This document shows positions 2,646-28,906 of a stretch of 64,000 bases of DNA, piece by piece; position 1 is the stretch's first letter; the number at the start of each line of letters is the position of its first letter. Source of the stretch: Escherichia phage REP5; the sequence record OQ174504.1, one strand, 5' to 3'. A program made the translations under genes and the position numbers. Under the pieces are notes generated by a model, which was given only the letters and a program-made list of their open reading frames with translations, ran no database searches and was not told the origin of the DNA.

Positions 2646-10688
<8,043 letters not shown>

Positions 10689-22174: not shown

Positions 22175-22386
22175 TATGTTTTCTCCAAATAATTAATACT
22201 GTTTCCCCTTAAAAAAGACGGCACAGAGACCGTCAAGGAGAAACCACAATGTACGTCAGAGACATACTGTATAAGTCTTCCTATAAAGTATAACTCTGTA
22301 AAAAAGCCCTGTCTAAAAATACTCTTCGGTAGCGAAAGGAAGAATACTTATAGCAGGGCATTATTATTATTTTAATTGAGAGAGAG

Positions 22387-22462
22387 TAAAATAACTTGGA
22401 GAATCCGAAGGGACTCGAACCCTTATAAACCTGTTTTGCAGACAGGCACATATCCATTTCTG
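22387..22462 (-). tRNA. tRNA-Cys (GCA)
   Basis: Manual fold: acceptor GAATCCG/CGGATTC, anticodon stem CCTGT/ACAGG, loop CTGCAAA, T-loop TTCGAGT, encoded CCA. Confidence 0.6.
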
Positions 22463-22466
22463 TCAC

Positions 22467-22559
22467 GGATTCAAATTGGAGGAAGATACCAGACTTGAAC
22501 TGGTACACCGATTTCTCAGCTACTGGCAGTTTAGCAAACTGCTCCCTTACCTTTTAGGG
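22467..22559 (-). tRNA. tRNA-Ser (GCU), type II
   Basis: Acceptor GGAAGAT/ATCTTCC, anticodon stem GCAGT/ACTGC, loop TTGCTAA, long variable arm, CCA. Confidence 0.6.
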
Positions 22560-22570
22560 TTAATCTTCCA

Positions 22571-23305
22571 TTATTTCTGTAATGCGCTCTTCATTTCTGG
22601 TGTTGCAATAGTGTCAATTACACCAGTTTTACAAGCATCATCAAACCAGTCTGGTAAGATACCTGCTAAGAACCCATTGATATTCGTTTTAAGGTACTCT
22701 GCAATAAGGGCAGCTTCTTCTTCAATCATCTGCACAACTTCATCTGCATAAGCTGTAATCTTTGAGATACCTTCATTAATCTTGCTAACAGCTTGGTTAG
22801 CTAAATCAGAAACAGTATCAAGACCTTTATCAATAGCATCTTGTAAGTCACTTAATACATCATTAACACCGTCTAGTGCACTGTTCATCATGTCAATAGC
22901 TTTTTGACCATGTTCTGTAGCAACACCCATAATACCACTGAATGGTGTACAACCAACTTGTTCTCCTGCTGCACCCATAACATTGGAATACCCCTTTGCT
23001 ACCTGCATACGTGATGAAAACTCATCAATAGACTTTTGACCGTAGTCTGTTAGGGTCTTAGTAGTTGCTGTAGTGCTTGTAAGGCTTGTTGTAAAGCTGT
23101 TTAGAAGGACTGTTGTAAGTCCAGCAGCAACAAGTTTCTCCTTCATTGTAGGGTCTGTTACAGAACTAATAGAGCTTACAAGTGATGTAGAAGCAGCTAC
23201 GGTTCCACCGAGGACTGCTGCACCAGTAATAAGTGGGTTAGAAAACCCTTTACCGGTTTTTAAGAGATTAAAAATCTCCTTACCTTGTTCTGTCATCTCT
23301 TTCAT
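22571..23305 (-). CDS. hypothetical protein embedded in tRNA cluster
   Basis: ORF 22571..23368 trimmed to an internal Met to avoid overlap with tRNA-Phe. Confidence 0.35.
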   Translation of the reverse strand: MKEMTEQGKEIFNLLKTGKGFSNPLITGAAVLGGTVAASTSLVSSISSVTDPTMKEKLVAAGLTTVLLNSFTTSLTSTTATTKTLTDYGQKSIDEFSSRMQVAKGYSNVMGAAGEQVGCTPFSGIMGVATEHGQKAIDMMNSALDGVNDVLSDLQDAIDKGLDTVSDLANQAVSKINEGISKITAYADEVVQMIEEEAALIAEYLKTNINGFLAGILPDWFDDACKTGVIDTIATPEMKSALQK

Positions 23306-23323
23306 TAAGCACCTTTGAAATTG

Positions 23324-23398
23324 GTAGTCCAGTGGGATTTGAACCCTCTTCTCATGTTTTTCAGACACGCGCTTTAACCATATAAGCTACTTGGACTA
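23324..23398 (-). tRNA. tRNA-Phe (GAA)
   Basis: Acceptor TAGTCCA/TGGACTA, anticodon stem CGTGT/ACATG, loop CTGAAAA, T-loop TTCAAAT. Confidence 0.55.
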
Positions 23399-23403
23399 TA
23401 AAT

Positions 23404-23479
23404 TGGGGTGACCTACGGGATTTGAACCCGTATAGACCATGTTCACAGCATGGGTCATTACCATTTATGATAAGGCCAC
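23404..23479 (-). tRNA. tRNA-His (GUG)
   Basis: D-stem TCAT/ATGA, anticodon stem CCATG/CATGG, loop CTGTGAA, CCA. Confidence 0.6.
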
Positions 23480-23510
23480 ATTTAAGGATTCTCGTAAGAA
23501 CCCTTAGAAG

Positions 23511-23586
23511 TGGCAGCGGCATAAGGATTTGAACCTTAATAGGACAGCTTCAGAGACTGTTGCATTGCCAGTTATGCTATACCGCT
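23511..23586 (-). tRNA. tRNA-Gln (CUG)
   Basis: D-stem GCAT/ATGC, anticodon stem ACAGT/GCTGT, loop CTCTGAA, T-arm TAAGG-TTCAAAT-CCTTA. Confidence 0.55.
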
Positions 23587-23591
23587 AAATT

Positions 23592-23670
23592 TGGTACTCC
23601 ATATCGGATTCGAACCGATACATAACACAGATTTTAAGTCTGGCCTCTCTGCCAATTGGAGTAATGGAGC
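23592..23670 (-). tRNA. tRNA with anticodon UAA (Leu-type) but short variable arm
   Basis: Anticodon helix CAGA/TCTG with loop CTTAAAA; Leu-like D-arm CCAATTGGCAGAG; A73; T-arm ATCGG-TTCGAAT-CCGAT; no long extra arm. Confidence 0.45.
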
Positions 23671-23672
23671 AT

Positions 23673-23748
23673 TGGCGGGGGATGTTGGAATTGAACCAAC
23701 TTCTTCGATTTCAAAGACCGAGGTTTTAACCTTGTAAACTAATCCCCT
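23673..23748 (-). tRNA. tRNA-Gln (UUG)
   Basis: Anticodon stem TCGGT/ATCGA, loop CTTTGAA, T-arm GTTGG-TTCAATT-CCAAC. Confidence 0.5.
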
Positions 23749-23756
23749 TTAAATCT

Positions 23757-24314
23757 TTACTTTCTCAGTGGATGAATAAAGAATGCCAACATAACTCTTT
23801 CCCTTGAGAATGCTCTTTCTTCTGGGACAACGCTTTTTAGTTTCCATCCAATATAAATTCTCCAGTAAAACTGTTTACCAAAGACTTTAATTGATGGGAT
23901 AAAAGCGAATAATCCCCAAGCATTACTGTTCCACATTAGGAGATAACCAGTCTGATTATCTTCAGGGTCAGAACTTACGTTGATATTACCTTTCCACTTA
24001 GTAACATCTTTTACATCTCTTCCTAATACATGGTAAGAGAAGTTATAAGCTTTGTTTCTCCAGAGCCACCCAACTCTCTGCATATAGACACCAAGCTTAC
24101 CAATCTTTCTAATTTTAGCCCATCGTTTAACGTGACCTTCATCACCATCAATTGGGTTGTCATATGTCTCCATCCATCTGAAGCCGAAAGGTAAGTGTCC
24201 TTTCTTCTCACTGTAAAATGGAACTACGAAAGGTGCTAAGATAACTGCTAAGATTGCTGCAAATGGCTCTAACAAAGCTAATAAAATCCATGAAGCATAC
24301 TTCAAATATCTCAT
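23757..24314 (-). CDS. membrane protein embedded in tRNA cluster
   Basis: 185-aa ORF with hydrophobic N-terminus ILLALLEPFAAILAVILAPFVVPF. Confidence 0.4.
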   Translation of the reverse strand: MRYLKYASWILLALLEPFAAILAVILAPFVVPFYSEKKGHLPFGFRWMETYDNPIDGDEGHVKRWAKIRKIGKLGVYMQRVGWLWRNKAYNFSYHVLGRDVKDVTKWKGNINVSSDPEDNQTGYLLMWNSNAWGLFAFIPSIKVFGKQFYWRIYIGWKLKSVVPEERAFSRERVMLAFFIHPLRK

Positions 24315-24333
24315 CTAAATAGCCTCTTTAAAT

Positions 24334-24409
24334 TGGCGCAGGATAAGGGATTCGAACCCCTATTAACAGCTTCGTAGACTGTTGCTCTATCCATTTGAAC
24401 TAATCCTGC
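24334..24409 (-). tRNA. tRNA-Arg (ACG)
   Basis: Acceptor GCAGGAT/ATCCTGC, anticodon stem ACAGT/GCTGT, loop CTACGAA. Confidence 0.6.
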
Positions 24410-24414
24410 AAAAT

Positions 24415-24492
24415 TGGTGTTCCAAGACGGATTCGAACCGTCACTAGTACAAGGTTTGAGCTTGCATCCTCTGCCAATTGGGATACTGGAAC
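24415..24492 (-). tRNA. tRNA with anticodon CAA (Leu-type) but short variable arm
   Basis: Anticodon stem GCAAG/CTTGT, loop CTCAAAC; D-arm CCAATTGGCAGAGG; A73. Confidence 0.45.
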
Positions 24493-24493
24493 A

Positions 24494-24568
24494 TGGTACT
24501 CACTAAAGGACTTGAACCTTTTTCTTCATCTTGTAAGGGTGGTGTTTTACCATATAAACTAAGCGAGT
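24494..24568 (-). tRNA. tRNA-Val (UAC)-like, weak anticodon stem
   Basis: Loop CTTACAA; anticodon stem CCACC/GATGA has two C-A mismatches; acceptor and T-arm intact. Confidence 0.4.
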
Positions 24569-24571
24569 ATG

Positions 24572-24658
24572 AAAGAGGTCTGAAGTTGTGCCGCTAACTC
24601 AACTCCGTGGAATTTGTTACGGTCTTCAGTTGACACCAGCGGTCTTTCACTTGACCTC
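24572..24658 (-). ncRNA. tRNA-like structured element / possible pseudo-tRNA
   Basis: 7-bp terminal helix AGAGGTC/GACCTCT enclosing ~73 nt with internal hairpins but no canonical T-loop. Confidence 0.2.
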
Positions 24659-24663
24659 TGAAT

Positions 24664-24740
24664 TGGTGCTGCTCACAGGACTCGAACCCGCATTTCCATC
24701 CTTACAAGGGATGTGTAATAGCCAATTATACGAAAGCAGC
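24664..24740 (-). tRNA. tRNA-Thr (UGU)
   Basis: Anticodon stem CATCC/GGATG, loop CTTGTAA. Confidence 0.6.
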
Positions 24741-24747
24741 ATTAATT

Positions 24748-24822
24748 TGGAGCATCCAGAGGGAATCGAACCCTCAACCTCAGTTTGGAAGACTGTAATT
24801 TTCCCGTTTAAACTATGGATGC
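24748..24822 (-). tRNA. tRNA-Gly (UCC)
   Basis: Acceptor GCATCCA/TGGATGC, loop CTTCCAA. Confidence 0.6.
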
Positions 24823-24828
24823 ACTAAT

Positions 24829-24904
24829 TGGTGGAGAAGCAGGGAATTGAACCCTGTACTTAAGTTTGCAAAACTTATGTTTTAACCATGTAAACTACAT
24901 CCCC
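24829..24904 (-). tRNA. tRNA-Ala (UGC)
   Basis: Anticodon stem TAAGT/ACTTA, loop TTTGCAA; G3-U70 wobble pair present. Confidence 0.6.
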
Positions 24905-24910
24905 AATGTC

Positions 24911-24986
24911 TGGTACAGGTGGAGGGAATTGAACCCATCGTCTTACTGATTAAGAGTCAGCCGCATAACCATTTTGCTACACCTGC
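24911..24986 (-). tRNA. tRNA-Lys (CUU)
   Basis: Anticodon stem GCTGA/TCAGT, loop CTCTTAA. Confidence 0.5.
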
Positions 24987-24993
24987 ATTAATT

Positions 24994-25071
24994 TGGTAGG
25001 AGACAAGGGATTCGAACCCTCAAACATCTCGTTCTAAGCGAGATAGGTTTACCAATTACCGTCAATCTCCC
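24994..25071 (-). tRNA. tRNA with anticodon UAG (Leu-type) but short variable arm
   Basis: Anticodon stem TCTCG/CGAGA, loop CTTAGAA; D-arm GTAATTGGTAAAC; A73; 5-nt variable region. Confidence 0.45.
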
Positions 25072-25316
25072 ATTAAGTCTTTTTAGAGAACTTCTAAGAA
25101 CCTAAGCAACAAGGTTCCACAACAAGCTGTAATAACCTTAGAAGCCCTCTAAAAAGACCTAAAAAGGTCTTTGCATAGTCTTGTTTAATCCGGTGACTAG
25201 AACCTTTGGAGAGCTTGATATTATCTCTTCTCCGTGACACCTACTAGGTGTTTTATCAATGTGTACAACAATACACGCGGTATACCAAAGCAACATCCGA
25301 ATGAAGCTTGGCTTTA

Positions 25317-25406
25317 AATCTTATTAGGCGGTAAGTAAAGGAGTCGAACCCTCACCGTATCTCTACAGTGGCAACTGTTTTCAAGACAGTTTGGCTACCA
25401 TTAGCC
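25317..25406 (-). tRNA. tRNA-Ser (UGA), type II
   Basis: Anticodon stem ACTGT/ACAGT, loop CTTGAAA, ~20-nt variable arm, T-loop TTCGACT. Confidence 0.55.
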
Positions 25407-25429
25407 GCTACCTACCCCTAATAAGACTT

Positions 25430-25512
25430 TGGCATGGGACGGAGGAGTTGAACCCCTTTGAAACGGTGTTGGAAGCCGTTGCTCATGCCTTAGAGTCTTA
25501 ACATCGTCCCAT
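25430..25512 (-). tRNA. atypical tRNA-like gene (Gly-UCC-like loop with 2-nt expansion)
   Basis: Acceptor ATGGGAC/GTCCCAT with CCA; T-arm AGGGG-TTCAACT-CCTCC; anticodon helix ACGG/CCGT enclosing 9-nt loop CTTCCAACA. Confidence 0.3.
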
Positions 25513-25644
25513 ACTATAATTCGAAGCTTACCGTATTATCTCAACACTGTAAAGCCCCTTCTCAGATTATTTACATGTTCTGGAAAACATGAGATACAGA
25601 CCACCTCCCTACAGGAAGACCCGCTTAGGTCGTCTAAGTAATCT

Positions 25645-25721
25645 GCTAACTATTTGGCACACCCTACAGGATTCGAACCTGTAACTCAATGATTAGAAGT
25701 CATTTGCTCTGTCCAGTTGAA
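25645..25721 (-). tRNA. tRNA-Arg (UCU)
   Basis: Anticodon stem AATGA/TCATT, loop CTTCTAA. Confidence 0.6.
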
Positions 25722-25934
25722 CTAAGGGTGCATTAATCTTTAAAGACTCTCTTAGAAAGCCCTTAAAGATGCCCACCTTATTAATCATACCGTGGGCTAG
25801 TACGCCAAATTCTTTGATGAGGGATTGGAAGACCTCACTGGTGTTTAGCCTATCAAGCTACTGCCAGAAAAACATTGTCGTTTGCATTTATTTTAAATTT
25901 GCAAAATAGACGCTACGCAACGAAAACTAAGGTT

Positions 25935-25963
25935 ACTATAAAGTGGTCACATCTCAGTGTCAA
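25935..25963 (-). promoter_or_regulatory. sigma70-like promoter inside tRNA cluster
   Basis: Minus-strand TTGACA, 17-nt spacer, TATAGT; points leftward into a ~200-nt leader then tRNA-Arg(UCU). Confidence 0.4.
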
Positions 25964-25978
25964 CAACTTTATTGAAAT

Positions 25979-26054
25979 TGGTACTGTGAGAAGGATTCGA
26001 ACCTTCTGCCTTTCGGTTATCAGCCGAATGCACATCCATATGTGCTTTCACAGC
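25979..26054 (-). tRNA. tRNA-Ile (GAU)
   Basis: D-stem GCAC/GTGC, anticodon stem TTCGG/CCGAA, loop CTGATAA. Confidence 0.6.
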
Positions 26055-26056
26055 TT

Positions 26057-26133
26057 TGGAGGTTCAGATGGGAATCGAACCCACATTCATAGGGCTTATG
26101 AGACCCTTGCATTACCTTATCTGCGACTGAACC
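26057..26133 (-). tRNA. tRNA-Met (CAU)
   Basis: Acceptor GGTTCAG/CTGAACC, anticodon stem AGGGT/GCCCT, loop CTCATAA. Confidence 0.55.
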
Positions 26134-26137
26134 ATTT

Positions 26138-26213
26138 TGGTAGAAGTGGAGGGATTCGAACCCATCGCCTGTCAGATTAAAAGTCTGCCGCATCACCATT
26201 CTGCTACACTTCC
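26138..26213 (-). tRNA. tRNA-Lys (UUU)
   Basis: Anticodon helix GCAG/CTGA-type with loop CTTTTAA; T-loop TTCGAAT; CCA. Confidence 0.55.
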
Positions 26214-26217
26214 ATTA

Positions 26218-26361
26218 AATTATCTTTGTAGATAAGCTACCCAGACTTGCTTAAGGTCTGTAGCGATGTGCCTTGTTGGGTTTAAATCTAGAATTTACCC
26301 TTTCACCCTTTGTGGTCGCATACTCACAGGTAAGCTTAATAACTTATCTACAAAGATAATT
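26218..26361. repeat. 19-bp perfect inverted repeat (AATTATCTTTGTAGATAAG) flanking ~106 bp
   Basis: Left arm 26218-26236 is the exact reverse complement of right arm 26343-26361. Confidence 0.6.
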
Positions 26362-26400
26362 ACCAGACCGTTGTTTATCATCTTAAGTGCTACCATTACA

Positions 26401-26440
26401 CCAACTCGACATCTGCCGAGTGAAGGAATCGAACCTTCAC
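26401..26440 (-). pseudogene. tRNA remnant (3' half only)
   Basis: Intact T-arm GAAGG-TTCGATT-CCTTC and acceptor-like 3' strand, but no complementary 5' acceptor found upstream. Confidence 0.25.
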
Positions 26441-26474
26441 CTTTTCTTTACCGGAGAAATAGATTGTTTAAGTT

Positions 26475-26497
26475 TTGCTGTAAACGGTCTTCTGTAA
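26475..26497. repeat. tRNA-cluster repeat element, copy 1
   Basis: TTGCTGTAAACGGTCTTCTGTAAA. Confidence 0.55.
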
Positions 26498-26563
26498 ATT
26501 TGTTGAGCCAGACCAAGTTTTAAATTTTTCAAAATTAAATTGGCTTGAAATTTTCATACGTTC

Positions 26564-26586
26564 TTGCTGTATTTGGTCTTCTGCTC
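26564..26586. repeat. tRNA-cluster repeat element, copy 2 (diverged)
   Basis: TTGCTGTATTTGGTCTTCTGCTC. Confidence 0.45.
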
Positions 26587-26643
26587 CTTTAAAGAATACT
26601 CGTAAGAACTCTTTAAGGGAGGGGCTAAATAGCCCTCTCAAAA

Positions 26644-26729
26644 TTGGCGGCTACGATGAGACTTGAACTCACATCATCTCCCAATATCCTTTTACGTGGG
26701 AGTATTTTAACCAAATTAAACTACATAAC
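26644..26729 (-). tRNA. type II tRNA, anticodon unresolved (possibly degenerate)
   Basis: 86 nt; acceptor GGTTATG/CGTAGCC with CCA; T-arm GTGAG-TTCAAGT-CTCAT; Leu-like D-arm; anticodon region CACGTAAAA with only a 3-bp stem. Confidence 0.35.
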
Positions 26730-26734
26730 CTTTA

Positions 26735-26822
26735 TTGGTGTGCCGTGTAGGAGTCGAACCTACCGAGTCTCAATGACAAGGGATTTACAGTCCCCACCGC
26801 TACCATCTACGGGATAACGACA
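26735..26822 (-). tRNA. tRNA-Tyr (GUA), type II
   Basis: Anticodon stem GGGGA/TCCCT, loop CTGTAAA, long variable arm, T-arm GTAGG-TTCGACT-CCTAC, CCA. Confidence 0.55.
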
Positions 26823-26830
26823 CATTTAAA

Positions 26831-26906
26831 TTTGCGGTTAGTCAGGGATTCGAACCCTGTGCCATTCGCTTAACAGGCGACCGCACATACCTTATGTGCT
26901 TCCTAA
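26831..26906 (-). tRNA. tRNA-Asn (GUU)
   Basis: D-stem GCAC/GTGC, anticodon stem GTCGC/GCGAA (one mismatch), loop CTGTTAA. Confidence 0.55.
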
Positions 26907-26966
26907 CCATATTTAGTATTACCAGACCGTATCTTTCAATTTTTTCCGCTAAAAATTTGATAAGTG

Positions 26967-26990
26967 TTGCTGTAAACGGTCTTCTGTAAA
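26967..26990. repeat. tRNA-cluster repeat element, copy 3
   Basis: TTGCTGTAAACGGTCTTCTGTAAA, directly abutting the 3' end of the tRNA at 26992. Confidence 0.55.
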
Positions 26991-26991
26991 A

Positions 26992-27068
26992 TTGGAGGCG
27001 GGTGCAGGAGTCGAACCTGCCGATACCATGCTAATGAGACATGTGAGACGCCCTTTCTCTATACCCGC
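26992..27068 (-). tRNA. second CAU-anticodon tRNA (Met, fMet or Ile2)
   Basis: D-stem GAGA/TCTC, anticodon stem CATGT/GCATG, loop CTCATTA; 1-72 mismatch. Confidence 0.5.
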
Positions 27069-27133
27069 AATTCTTAATGACCAGACCAAATCTCTTCTTT
27101 GTCCGATTTACCTTCAGATGAATAAGATTAAGT

Positions 27134-27157
27134 TTGCTGTAATTGGTCTTCTGTCAA
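27134..27157. repeat. tRNA-cluster repeat element, copy 4
   Basis: TTGCTGTAATTGGTCTTCTGTCAA, abutting the 3' end of tRNA-Glu. Confidence 0.5.
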
Positions 27158-27160
27158 AAC

Positions 27161-27238
27161 TGGCGTTCCAGAAGGGATTTGAACCCTCAGATATCCACTT
27201 TGAAAGAGTGGTGACTATACCATTTTGTCTACTGGAAC
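27161..27238 (-). tRNA. tRNA-Glu (UUC)
   Basis: Acceptor GTTCCAG/CTGGAAC, anticodon stem CCACT/AGTGG, loop CTTTCAA. Confidence 0.6.
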
Positions 27239-27245
27239 ATTAATT

Positions 27246-27325
27246 TGGTCTCCGTTGAAGGATTTGAACCCTCGACCCCTTGCTCCCAAAGCAAGTGCTG
27301 CTAAACCAAACTGAGCTAAACGGAG
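27246..27325 (-). tRNA. tRNA-Pro (UGG)
   Basis: Anticodon stem CTTGC/GCAAG, loop TTTGGGA, T-arm GAGGG-TTCAAAT-CCTTC, CCA. Confidence 0.55.
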
Positions 27326-27449
27326 ATAAACTTTTCAAACTCTATGTAACCACTTTAACATTATTTTTTAGTGGTTGTCAAGAACTTTTTTAAAATATTT
27401 TTCAGTATCTTAGAAAAGCTCTCATTTCGTTTCTATGTAGAACATATTA

Positions 27450-27490: not shown

Positions 27491-28906
27491 TTACCAGATG
27501 TAACGGTCAATCGTTACTGCTTTGAGCATTACGCTGATTGGGTCAAACTTCTCACCACCAAGCAGAGCTTTTAAAGTGGCTGGAGAGAACCCTGATACCA
27601 TTGCTACACCGTTATCCTTAACAGATACTTCGCAAGTACCATTACGGTTTGCTAAGTACCAGAATACCAGTTGTGGCATCTCATATCCAGCTTTTTTGTA
27701 CTTACTCTGAATTGCTTCAAAGTTTGTACGACCGTTAGCTCCATCAACCTGATTGAACTCCATATCGGAGAAGATGATAAGCTTACTTGGCATATCTTTC
27801 TGAGTCAAGTTGTTTCTCTTACCTGTCTCAAGGATGCGGTCAAAAGCTGCTTGTAAGTTAGTTGAACCATATTCAACATGTCGCATCACCTGACGGTGAC
27901 GGTTCTTTAAATCGCCACTCAGTTCGATGAAATGAGGGTTTGTTGAATAAACCATTAACTCGTTCTTAAAGCAACCTGTATTGCGTTCTGCTACATACAA
28001 GGCAAGTGATACACCAATATCAAGGGCAGTAATTGAGCCAAAATTCACCCAAGACATTGAACTTGAAACATCAGACATACATAGAATGTTTTCACCCTCT
28101 GCCATCCAGTTTGGTAGTGCTTTCCACTGCTCATTAGCAACATCTGCATTACCATACTTAACAGATTTAATCACATCGTATGGATAAACAGCACCAGCGT
28201 TAATCTTAGTCTCACCCTTTGATAAGGACTCGATGTAAGCTTTGTAACGCTCTCCATCTTTACGGTTAAACAGTTTTTGGTAACGTGCAGCAGCAAGTGA
28301 AGGAATCTTACTGTAGTCAATATTACCAAACTCATTAGCAGAGATTTTTTGCTCAACTGTATCAGATAGTGCAGACAATAGTGTGCGGTACTCTTTCTCA
28401 CTCAAGTTGGCAAACTTGCAGAAACGTTTTACAAACTGCTTATGACGTGGTTTGACTCGTGGTAACCACTTAGCTGCTAAACCTGCTGTTGCAGGGTCTA
28501 GTAAAGCTGCTTCTAAATGTTTGAAGGCATCTGTCTCGAAACGAGTACCTACAAAGATTTTGAAGTCATCAAAACGACCAAGTTCTGCAATCTTATCCAT
28601 AATGCGAAGAACCTGCGTAGGCTCTAAAACTTTATCTTCAATCGCTTGAAGTAAAACAGTTCGGAAAGCTTTACGCTCACCCATACCCTCTCGTACATCT
28701 CGCATATGCAGTAAAATACGAACTGCAACATCAACATCCTCATGCAAAGCTTTGTAGAACAAGTCTGGTAAGATTTCTACATTGCTACGGCTAGAACCAG
28801 CAGCTTTGTAAAAGTCCACAAGAGCAGACATTGATGAAGTATGGTTTACAGCACCATTTTCAGTTCGACCTGCATGAAGGTGCGCATGTTTAAATAACTC
28901 GCTCAT
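27491..28906 (-). CDS. vWA-like (DUF2828-type) protein
   Basis: 471-aa ORF; MIDAS-like DxSxS motif in CMSDVSSSM. Confidence 0.5.
   Translation of the reverse strand: MSELFKHAHLHAGRTENGAVNHTSSMSALVDFYKAAGSSRSNVEILPDLFYKALHEDVDVAVRILLHMRDVREGMGERKAFRTVLLQAIEDKVLEPTQVLRIMDKIAELGRFDDFKIFVGTRFETDAFKHLEAALLDPATAGLAAKWLPRVKPRHKQFVKRFCKFANLSEKEYRTLLSALSDTVEQKISANEFGNIDYSKIPSLAAARYQKLFNRKDGERYKAYIESLSKGETKINAGAVYPYDVIKSVKYGNADVANEQWKALPNWMAEGENILCMSDVSSSMSWVNFGSITALDIGVSLALYVAERNTGCFKNELMVYSTNPHFIELSGDLKNRHRQVMRHVEYGSTNLQAAFDRILETGKRNNLTQKDMPSKLIIFSDMEFNQVDGANGRTNFEAIQSKYKKAGYEMPQLVFWYLANRNGTCEVSVKDNGVAMVSGFSPATLKALLGGEKFDPISVMLKAVTIDRYIW

Follow-up and report, generated by a model that had tools for sequence, protein, structure and literature searches.

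Leucine tRNA genes without a long variable arm in the tRNA cluster of Escherichia phage REP5, and similar genes in phages and tRNA arrays

Bacterial leucine transfer RNAs (tRNA-Leu) are treated as class II molecules, i.e., tRNAs with a long variable arm, by textbooks as well as by recent primary papers, and the one bacterial exception characterised so far was described as the first of its kind. Type I tRNA-Leu, which lack this arm, are already known from animal mitochondria, from Streptomyces coelicolor and from a passing note on a Mycobacterium tRNA gene cluster, and have been studied in one bacterium only. In S. coelicolor, type I as well as type II tRNA-Leu coexist in one cytoplasm and a single leucyl-tRNA synthetase (LeuRS) leucylates both (PMC6614811). 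In Escherichia coli, leucine identity resides in A73, the A15-U48 Levitt pair, G18G19, A20a and the tertiary pairs that join the D-loop to the T-loop, and neither in the anticodon nor in the long arm; arm-less and anticodon-arm-less variants of E. coli tRNA-Leu are still active (PMC9976931). This report focuses on three tRNA-Leu genes of Escherichia phage REP5, referred to as Leu(UAA), Leu(CAA) and Leu(UAG) after their anticodons, which lie in a stretch of 64,000 nucleotides (nt) of sequence record OQ174504.1 (hereafter the window, in which all positions are counted). They represent three arm-less leucine isoacceptors whose genes are fixed throughout a large and well-sampled set of phages of E. 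coli, Salmonella and Shigella. A literature search found arm-less tRNA-Leu in phages, or its frequency, nowhere described: there is no mention of it in the tRNA-array papers, in the review of non-canonical tRNAs or in a 2025 paper on the tRNAs of the Moogle-like phage Sf14, where the variable arm never comes up (PMC12482277).

The three genes are found by ARAGORN (Table 1), and Infernal aligns them with the Rfam tRNA model RF00005 over model positions 1-71 at 47.5 (UAA), 43.6 (CAA) and 44.5 bits (UAG), well over the gathering score of 29, so that by score none of them resembles a pseudogene. Their variable regions are GUUAUGU in Leu(UAA), ACUAGU in Leu(CAA) and UGUUU in Leu(UAG), i.e., 7, 6 and 5 nt that form no helix, according to ARAGORN and Infernal alike. 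The long arm of a class II tRNA, taken here as a variable region of at least 10 nt with a stem-loop, was found by the automated predictors in none of the three. The variable regions of 5-7 nt that the original prediction had obtained by manual folding are thereby borne out, and so are its leucine anticodons: ARAGORN, run on the window, recovers the same three tRNA-Leu genes at identical coordinates, and both programs place the same anticodon arms, with the 7-nt loops CUUAAAA (UAA), CUCAAAC (CAA) and CUUAGAA (UAG), each with U33. The two tRNA-Ser and the tRNA-Tyr of the same cluster, which had been described as long-armed, do keep their long arms in the automated folds. All three tRNA-Leu genes are annotated as such in the GenBank records of REP6, VpaE1 and Sf13, the last with an explicit tRNAscan-SE basis and lengths of 78, 78 and 79 nt. 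Minimum-free-energy folding of the bare sequences returned a cloverleaf for Leu(UAG) only, which is usual for unmodified tRNA sequences and is not counted as evidence.

The leucine identity nucleotides are in place. A73 followed by CCA, A15 and U48 occur in all three tRNAs, U8 and A14 are where tRNAs normally have them in both Leu(UAA) and Leu(CAA), and the Leu-like D-arm with an AAUUGG loop, which had been pointed out together with A73 in the original prediction, is likewise common to all three. Leu(UAA) has a 3-bp D-stem, the 11-nt D-loop CAAUUGGCAGA, a G1.U72 pair and a C27.U43 mismatch; the D-arm of Leu(CAA) is built in the same way (UCC/CAAUUGGCAGA/GGA). Unstructured pairwise alignment with the host genes leuZ, leuX and leuW was uninformative and was replaced by a domain-by-domain comparison, in which the D-loop NAAUUGGYAGA of Leu(UAA) and Leu(CAA) superimposes on the host loops GAAUCGGUAGA and AAAUUGGUAGA and matches leuW, leuZ and leuX in length and register. 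Leu(UAG) is less regular: its D-loop, UAAUUGGUAAA, sits on a shifted stem, which makes the numbering ambiguous, and the D-stem CGGU/ACCU contains a C.U mismatch on which ARAGORN and Infernal agree. ARAGORN folds this tRNA with a 7-bp acceptor stem (including G1.U72 and U7.G66) and a 3-nt connector, i.e., one extra nucleotide before the D-stem; the acceptor register of Infernal is one base off, and only that of ARAGORN sets A73 directly before CCA, as in the neighbouring tRNAs. In leucine tRNAs that read CUN codons, G37 is methylated to m1G37. Leu(UAG) carries A37 against G37 in host leuW, and C32 and A38 against the host's U32 and U38, loop differences that are also listed in the Sf14 paper (PMC12482277). 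Taken together, a leucine anticodon, the leucine identity nucleotides and a variable loop within the 4-7 nt of a type I tRNA-Leu are found in each of the three genes, which are tRNAs with the E. coli leucine identity set and type I architecture and are not class II.

Since losing a class-defining feature could alter synthetase recognition, it is conceivable that the three tRNAs accept another amino acid in place of leucine and recode leucine codons. For the near-identical homologs of Sf14, the tRNAscan-SE isotype model for Leu ranks top, with scores of 67.4 (UAG, probably the Sf13-type allele described below), 49.1 (CAA) and 60.2 (UAA), and the Ile2 and Lys scores come near the Leu score for UAG (PMC12482277). 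Nonetheless, recoding seems to us extremely unlikely. The synthetases that read the anticodon are excluded by the leucine anticodons, which are wrong for every one of them, and seryl-tRNA synthetase (SerRS) by the absence of a long arm; G3:U70, the mark of alanine, can be read off none of the three sequences; the full leucine set is present; and a change of meaning at 8% of the phage codons would be destructive.

The three tRNAs are nearly invariant across several hundred genomes of the subfamily Ounavirinae: Leu(UAA) recurs with at least 99% identity in 215 phage records and Leu(CAA) with at least 95% identity in 247. Leu(UAG) exists as two alleles among relatives, and the allele typified by Shigella phage Sf13 differs from the window gene in the anticodon stem only, by three compensated swaps (U-A to C-G, U-A to A-U, G-C to C-G), while one pair becomes U.U. 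When the Sf13 gene (positions 3001-3078 of the extracted locus) is set against the window gene, the whole anticodon stem appears exchanged (UCUCG/CGAGA against CCAUC/GUUGG), which looks like a cassette-like replacement and not like point drift. Erwinia phage phiEa104, a member of Kolesnikvirus in the same subfamily, carries diverged versions of type I leucine tRNAs, three in number and with anticodons CAA, AAG and UAA, one of which was labelled 'Undet' in its 2011 tRNAscan-SE annotation. Leu(CAA) had no blastn match in 5,426 complete E. coli genomes, from which it follows that a close relative of this gene is present neither in the host nor in its prophages. In E. coli, CUG makes up about half of the leucine codons and CUA is rare. 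In the 56 long open reading frames (ORFs) of the window, leucine is encoded by TTA (27%), CTT (27.5%), CTG (14%), TTG (13%), CTA (11%) and CTC (6%), so that the three anticodons cover codons over-used by the phage. All three leucine tRNAs are rated 'consistent' with codon compensation in the Sf14 paper (PMC12482277).

The short-armed build is not peculiar to this phage but is one case of a class widespread in phages and tRNA arrays. The frequencies that follow refer to motif-dependent samples of about 120 contigs and to the matches listed for them, and the IMG/VR contigs may include host DNA. With a pattern in which a Leu-type D-loop, a leucine anticodon loop and a T-loop were fixed and the arm length was left free, 123 matches were listed for the first 120 IMG/VR contigs, 40 with a variable region of 5-7 nt, 83 with one of 11-18 nt and none between. 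A first viral scan, which used the D-loop and T-loop only, had also caught Thr, Lys, Trp and other tRNAs, so that AAUUGGYAGA alone is not specific to leucine, and the anticodon loop was added to the pattern in later scans. The 86 viral loci of this first scan that were caught through a non-Leu tRNA form a less biased sample, in which 27 Leu tRNAs were short and 36 long, against 0 and 42 for Ser and 2 and 20 for Tyr; every short Leu tRNA among them has A73, A15 and U48. About 33-43% of the Leu-anticodon tRNAs in the sampled viral contigs are short-armed, and the short arm is specific to leucine, Ser and Tyr tRNAs being almost never short-armed in the viral survey. A type I-specific scan of bacteria, with one genome per species and at least 120 matches, gives presence and not frequency; among the matches listed, Actinomycetota predominate, with Acidobacteriota, Planctomycetota and cyanobacteria well represented, and the gene lies among at least 10 tRNAs within 8 kb (arrays) at 32 loci and is a lone tRNA at 46. 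Over all loci, the distinct type I leucine tRNAs collected numbered 85 from viral and 180 from bacterial sequences. A73 occurs in 100% of the viral and 99% of the bacterial sequences and U48 in 100% and 98%, compared with about 50% (A73) and 40% (U48) in other isotypes; neither nucleotide was part of any search pattern. In 246 distinct type I leucine tRNAs, canonical pairs occupy 96% of the stem positions, each of which shows 4-6 pair types, and canonical pairing falls to 45-47% when the 3' partner is slid by one base, a covariation count that is partly circular, the cloverleaves having been selected by ARAGORN.

These data bear on whether the three genes might be tRNA-like sequences in decay or without a part in translation, be they pseudogenes, decoys or processing signals, which the host LeuRS could not charge. 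Such a view can draw on the failure of E. coli LeuRS (EcLeuRS) on the type I tRNA-Leu of S. coelicolor (PMC6614811), on the irregularities of Leu(UAG) and Leu(UAA), on degenerate tRNA-like elements in the same cluster, such as a tRNA-Asp homolog with a 13-nt anticodon loop, and on the 'Undet' label of the phiEa104 homolog in an older tRNAscan-SE annotation. It is nevertheless very improbable in light of the near-invariance over hundreds of genomes, the compensated stem changes, the fact that the 246 distinct sequences have all conserved A73, A15:U48 and a canonical anticodon loop, and the three complementary anticodons that match the codon bias of the phage.

We consider it likely, from the sequence and its conservation, that the three genes are working phage leucine tRNAs of type I that the host LeuRS charges by way of A73 and of the tertiary core. 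Their transcription would be shared with the remainder of the minus-strand tRNA cluster, and host enzymes would mature them, CCA being encoded already. A scan of the cluster for promoters and terminators gave sites no more frequent than in shuffled sequences and is uninformative on expression. Leucylation is expected to fall to the host LeuRS, since none of seven large ORFs of the window, when searched for Pfam domains, proved to be a synthetase (the phage genome extends some 23 kb beyond the window). The enzyme would recognise A73 and the tertiary core, i.e., U8:A14, the A15:U48 Levitt pair and G18G19 in the Leu-type D-loop. The UAA and CAA anticodons would then read UUA and UUG, and UAG would read CUA and other CUN codons; these codons are far more frequent in the AT-rich phage than in its host.

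Several observations weigh against this reading, beside the partial circularity of the covariation count. On the one hand, the type I tRNA-Leu(CAA) of S. coelicolor, the sole bacterial one put to the test, is not charged by EcLeuRS, which is said to charge type II tRNA-Leu only (PMC6614811); that tRNA has C48 and lacks the U48 of the phage genes. In the crystal complex, moreover, the C-terminal domain of EcLeuRS contacts arm nucleotides 47f-47i, and charging of arm-less tRNAs may therefore be less efficient. On the other hand, the phage tRNAs themselves present anomalies, namely the irregular D-arm and connector of Leu(UAG), its A37 in place of G37, and the C27.U43 mismatch of Leu(UAA), and the lead of the Leu isotype for the Sf14 Leu(UAG) is narrow (Leu 67.4 against Ile2 65.7 and Lys 63.4; PMC12482277).

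If the three genes do work as leucine tRNAs, their missing arm calls for an explanation that accounts for leucine alone. Loss of the arm would be possible in Leu only, because bacterial SerRS and tyrosyl-tRNA synthetase need the arm and LeuRS does not; of the three bacterial class II identities, Leu would be the only one able to do without it, which would account for the long arms of tRNA-Ser and tRNA-Tyr in the window and in the survey. A reasonable possibility is that the loss was neutral: with a LeuRS that ignores the arm, deletions would be tolerated and fixed in compact phage genomes, and the resulting lineage would spread horizontally without special benefit. The arm-independence of E. 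coli leucine identity (PMC9976931) and the restriction to leucine both agree with it, as does the fact that one syntenic slot of T5-like Escherichia phages holds an 85-nt type II Leu(UAG) gene in T5 and a 77-nt type I gene in DT571/2. The two types also occur together in one Salmonella phage of the Demerecviridae, vB_Sen_SG_WM_SEW_6S, whose single cluster contains a type II Leu(UAA) (86 nt, positions 31-116 of the extracted locus) and a type I Leu(UAG) (77 nt, 2501-2577). Neutral loss agrees less well with the sequences of the class. Position 13 is C in 79% of type I leucine tRNAs, usually together with C12, and G or A in 93% of type II, mostly together with G12; the 5-nt loops of type I fall into few motifs (e.g., ACAGU, AGGUU, CCAGU, AUGUU), ACAGU being the commonest in viruses. 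A C12/C13 core and so restricted a set of loops point to a remodelled, selected and old lineage with a distinct core and not to a simple deletion product, and the roughly 10 nt saved per gene are trivial. Leu(UAA) and Leu(CAA), the two of the three window tRNAs that have C13, fall in this major class; Leu(UAG) is part of a minor one, whose loops are U-rich and whose D-arm is type II-like, and its nearest relatives are the type I genes of T5-like phages.

Cultured carriers of type I tRNA-Leu further include Acinetobacter phage phiAbaA1, Aeromonas phage AhP_Mru1, Lactobacillus phage LpeD (three genes), a Mycobacterium prophage and Streptomyces phage JXY1. The DT571/2 gene (positions 5997-6073 of its extracted locus) has the anticodon loop CCUAGAA, with C33 instead of the near-universal U33, and adjoins tRNA-Ala(UGC), in the same slot as the type II tRNA-Leu(UAG) of T5, to which it is unrelated.

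A selective benefit could come from antiphage defence: an arm-less leucine tRNA would work in translation and stay usable when toxins or nucleases that recognise the arm inactivate the host tRNA-Leu. The nucleotidyltransferase toxin MenT3 needs a long variable loop, in that loop-deleted tRNA-Ser remains unmodified at low toxin concentration and tRNA-Met becomes a target once the long loop is grafted onto it (PMC11541572). AbiEii has an apparent preference for class II tRNAs, and human SLFN11 cleaves type II tRNAs according to a reference listed in PMC13056530. Type I leucine tRNAs are, moreover, often met with in phages and dense tRNA arrays, elements that are thought to counter tRNA-directed defence, and both the exchange of the whole Leu(UAG) anticodon stem and the differences of its loop from that of the host fit an escape from tRNA-directed enzymes. 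Yet no known defence of E. coli or Salmonella attacks tRNA-Leu by way of the arm, MenT3 prefers Ser over Leu (PMC11541572), and the tRNA-Ser and tRNA-Tyr of the same phages are long-armed and hence still exposed. T4 and T5 both carry type II tRNA-Leu, and neutral loss would explain the distribution equally well, so that an anti-defence role appears unlikely. A broader version of the idea, which we put forward as a conjecture that is probably wrong in at least some part, holds that arm-less tRNA-Leu would form a distinct old lineage (with the C12-C13 core and loops of the ACAGU and AGGUU type) found mainly in phages and mobile arrays across many phyla, kept by its escape from arm-recognising immune toxins and nucleases, with leucine alone affording the loss of the arm. 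As a corollary, natural type I tRNA-Leu would be efficiently charged by an E. coli-type LeuRS, at odds with the published view that this enzyme accepts type II only.

The survey, in which the arm-less build is common among phages and mobile arrays and leucine-specific, is the more interesting by-product of this analysis. Should these findings hold up, they would offer a natural test of the arm independence of LeuRS recognition in the best-studied synthetase system, would account for occasional 'undetermined' and 'pseudo' calls by annotation pipelines and would supply ready compact leucine tRNA scaffolds for engineering. They would also provide a testable tie between tRNA architecture and tRNA-directed antiphage defence.

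The surrounding cluster is shared with many phages. The 5.1-kb stretch 22300-27400 is 100% identical, at equal coordinates, in Escherichia phages REP6 and REP7 (OQ174505/6), which belong to the genus Felixounavirus of the subfamily Ounavirinae, and shares 95-97% identity with many Felix O1-like phages from Escherichia, Salmonella and Shigella. Neighbouring tRNA genes are separated by 1-8 nt or by small ORFs (Table 1). In Pfam scans, the ORFs that lie in the cluster or adjoin it matched only domains whose function is unknown (DUF7217, DUF7338 and DUF2828 with DUF7788), and to our knowledge none of these ORFs has been linked to tRNA function so far.

Table 1. Features of the tRNA cluster region of Escherichia phage REP5 (V, length of the variable region in nt)
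Feature	Position in window	Strand	Remarks
tRNA-Leu(UAA), type I	23592..23670	(-)	ARAGORN; 79 nt including encoded CCA
tRNA-Leu(CAA), type I	24415..24492	(-)	ARAGORN; 78 nt including encoded CCA
tRNA-Leu(UAG), type I	24994..25071	(-)	ARAGORN; 78 nt including encoded CCA
Phage tRNA gene cluster	22397..27325	(-)	25 ARAGORN tRNAs, encoded CCA in nearly all
tRNA-Ser(GCU), type II	22477..22569	(-)	93 nt, V=21; internal control, long arm kept
tRNA-Ser(UGA), type II	25327..25416	(-)	90 nt, V=20; internal control, long arm kept
tRNA-Tyr(GUA), type II	26736..26823	(-)	88 nt, V=15; internal control, long arm kept
ORF with DUF7217 (Pfam)	22571-23305		Small ORF within tRNA cluster
ORF with DUF7338 (Pfam)	23757-24314		Small ORF within tRNA cluster
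471-aa ORF with DUF2828 and DUF7788 (Pfam)	27491-28906	(-)	Directly upstream of tRNA cluster; GenBank label 'RNA-binding protein'

Three further minus-strand elements of the cluster deviate from ordinary tRNA genes. The element at 26645-26730 is homologous to the tRNA-Asp(GUC) found in VpaE1 and Sf13, but a 13-nt loop, CGUAAAAGGAUAU, on a 6-bp stem replaces the 7-nt anticodon loop CUGUCAC. It is thus without an Asp anticodon, is listed in GenBank as 'tRNA-OTHER NNN' and scores 44.3 bits with the Rfam tRNA model; ARAGORN makes no call there, which is why that program finds no tRNA-Asp in the window. At about 25437-25520, a tRNA-like element reported by neither ARAGORN nor Rfam has TGGGACG/CGTCCCA paired in the manner of an acceptor stem, GGGGTTCAACTCC resembling a T-arm and GCCA at its 3' end, and bears a likeness to the 'tRNA-like stable RNAs' annotated in T5. 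Finally, the 131-nt 'tRNA-Thr(GGT)' of GenBank at 26414-26544 has only a partial, sub-threshold tRNA match (22 bits, 26421-26471) and no ARAGORN call, and could be a degenerate or interrupted tRNA.

Among the described systems, the type I tRNA-Leu(CAA) of S. coelicolor resembles the phage tRNAs in its 5-nt loop ACAGC, close to the viral motif ACAGU, and in A73 and U8:A14 (PMC6614811). Unlike them, it is the product of a chromosomal actinomycete gene and carries C48; A73 is not the key determinant in that system, whose LeuRS has a specialised leucine-specific domain (PMC6614811), whereas the phage tRNAs hold the full E. coli identity set and must work with an E. coli-type LeuRS. The tRNA-Leu(UAG) of a Mycobacterium mucogenicum/phocaicum cluster is a short-loop isoacceptor that coexists with normal long-arm chromosomal copies; its tRNA gene cluster, which also has an HNH endonuclease, was acquired horizontally and is an element of the kind seen in the arrays of the bacterial scan. 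This tRNA comes from another host phylum and was given a one-sentence mention without analysis of identity, distribution or function (PMC6582537). The animal mitochondrial tRNA-Leu(UUR/CUN) share the type I build and have A14 and A73 as their main identity elements (PMC9976931), but they are organellar and often structurally relaxed, depend on a dedicated mitochondrial LeuRS and are without the conserved bacterial D-loop/T-loop core of the phage genes. With the type II leuZ, leuX and leuW of the host and the T5 tRNA-Leu(UAG), the phage genes share the anticodons, A73, A15:U48, the 3-bp D-stem and the 11-nt NAAUYGGUAGA loop. They differ from these genes in having 5-7 unpaired nt in place of a 13-15-nt stem-loop arm and, in two of the three, C13 in place of G or A13, and measure 78-79 nt with CCA compared with 87, 85 and 85 nt for leuZ, leuX and leuW. 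The engineered arm-less E. coli tRNA-Leu (Asahara 1998; Tocchini-Valentini 2000; Larkin 2002) are laboratory constructs that, according to the summary in PMC9976931, LeuRS can charge without the arm if A73 and the D/T-loop core are intact; this is the same mode as that proposed here for the phage tRNAs.

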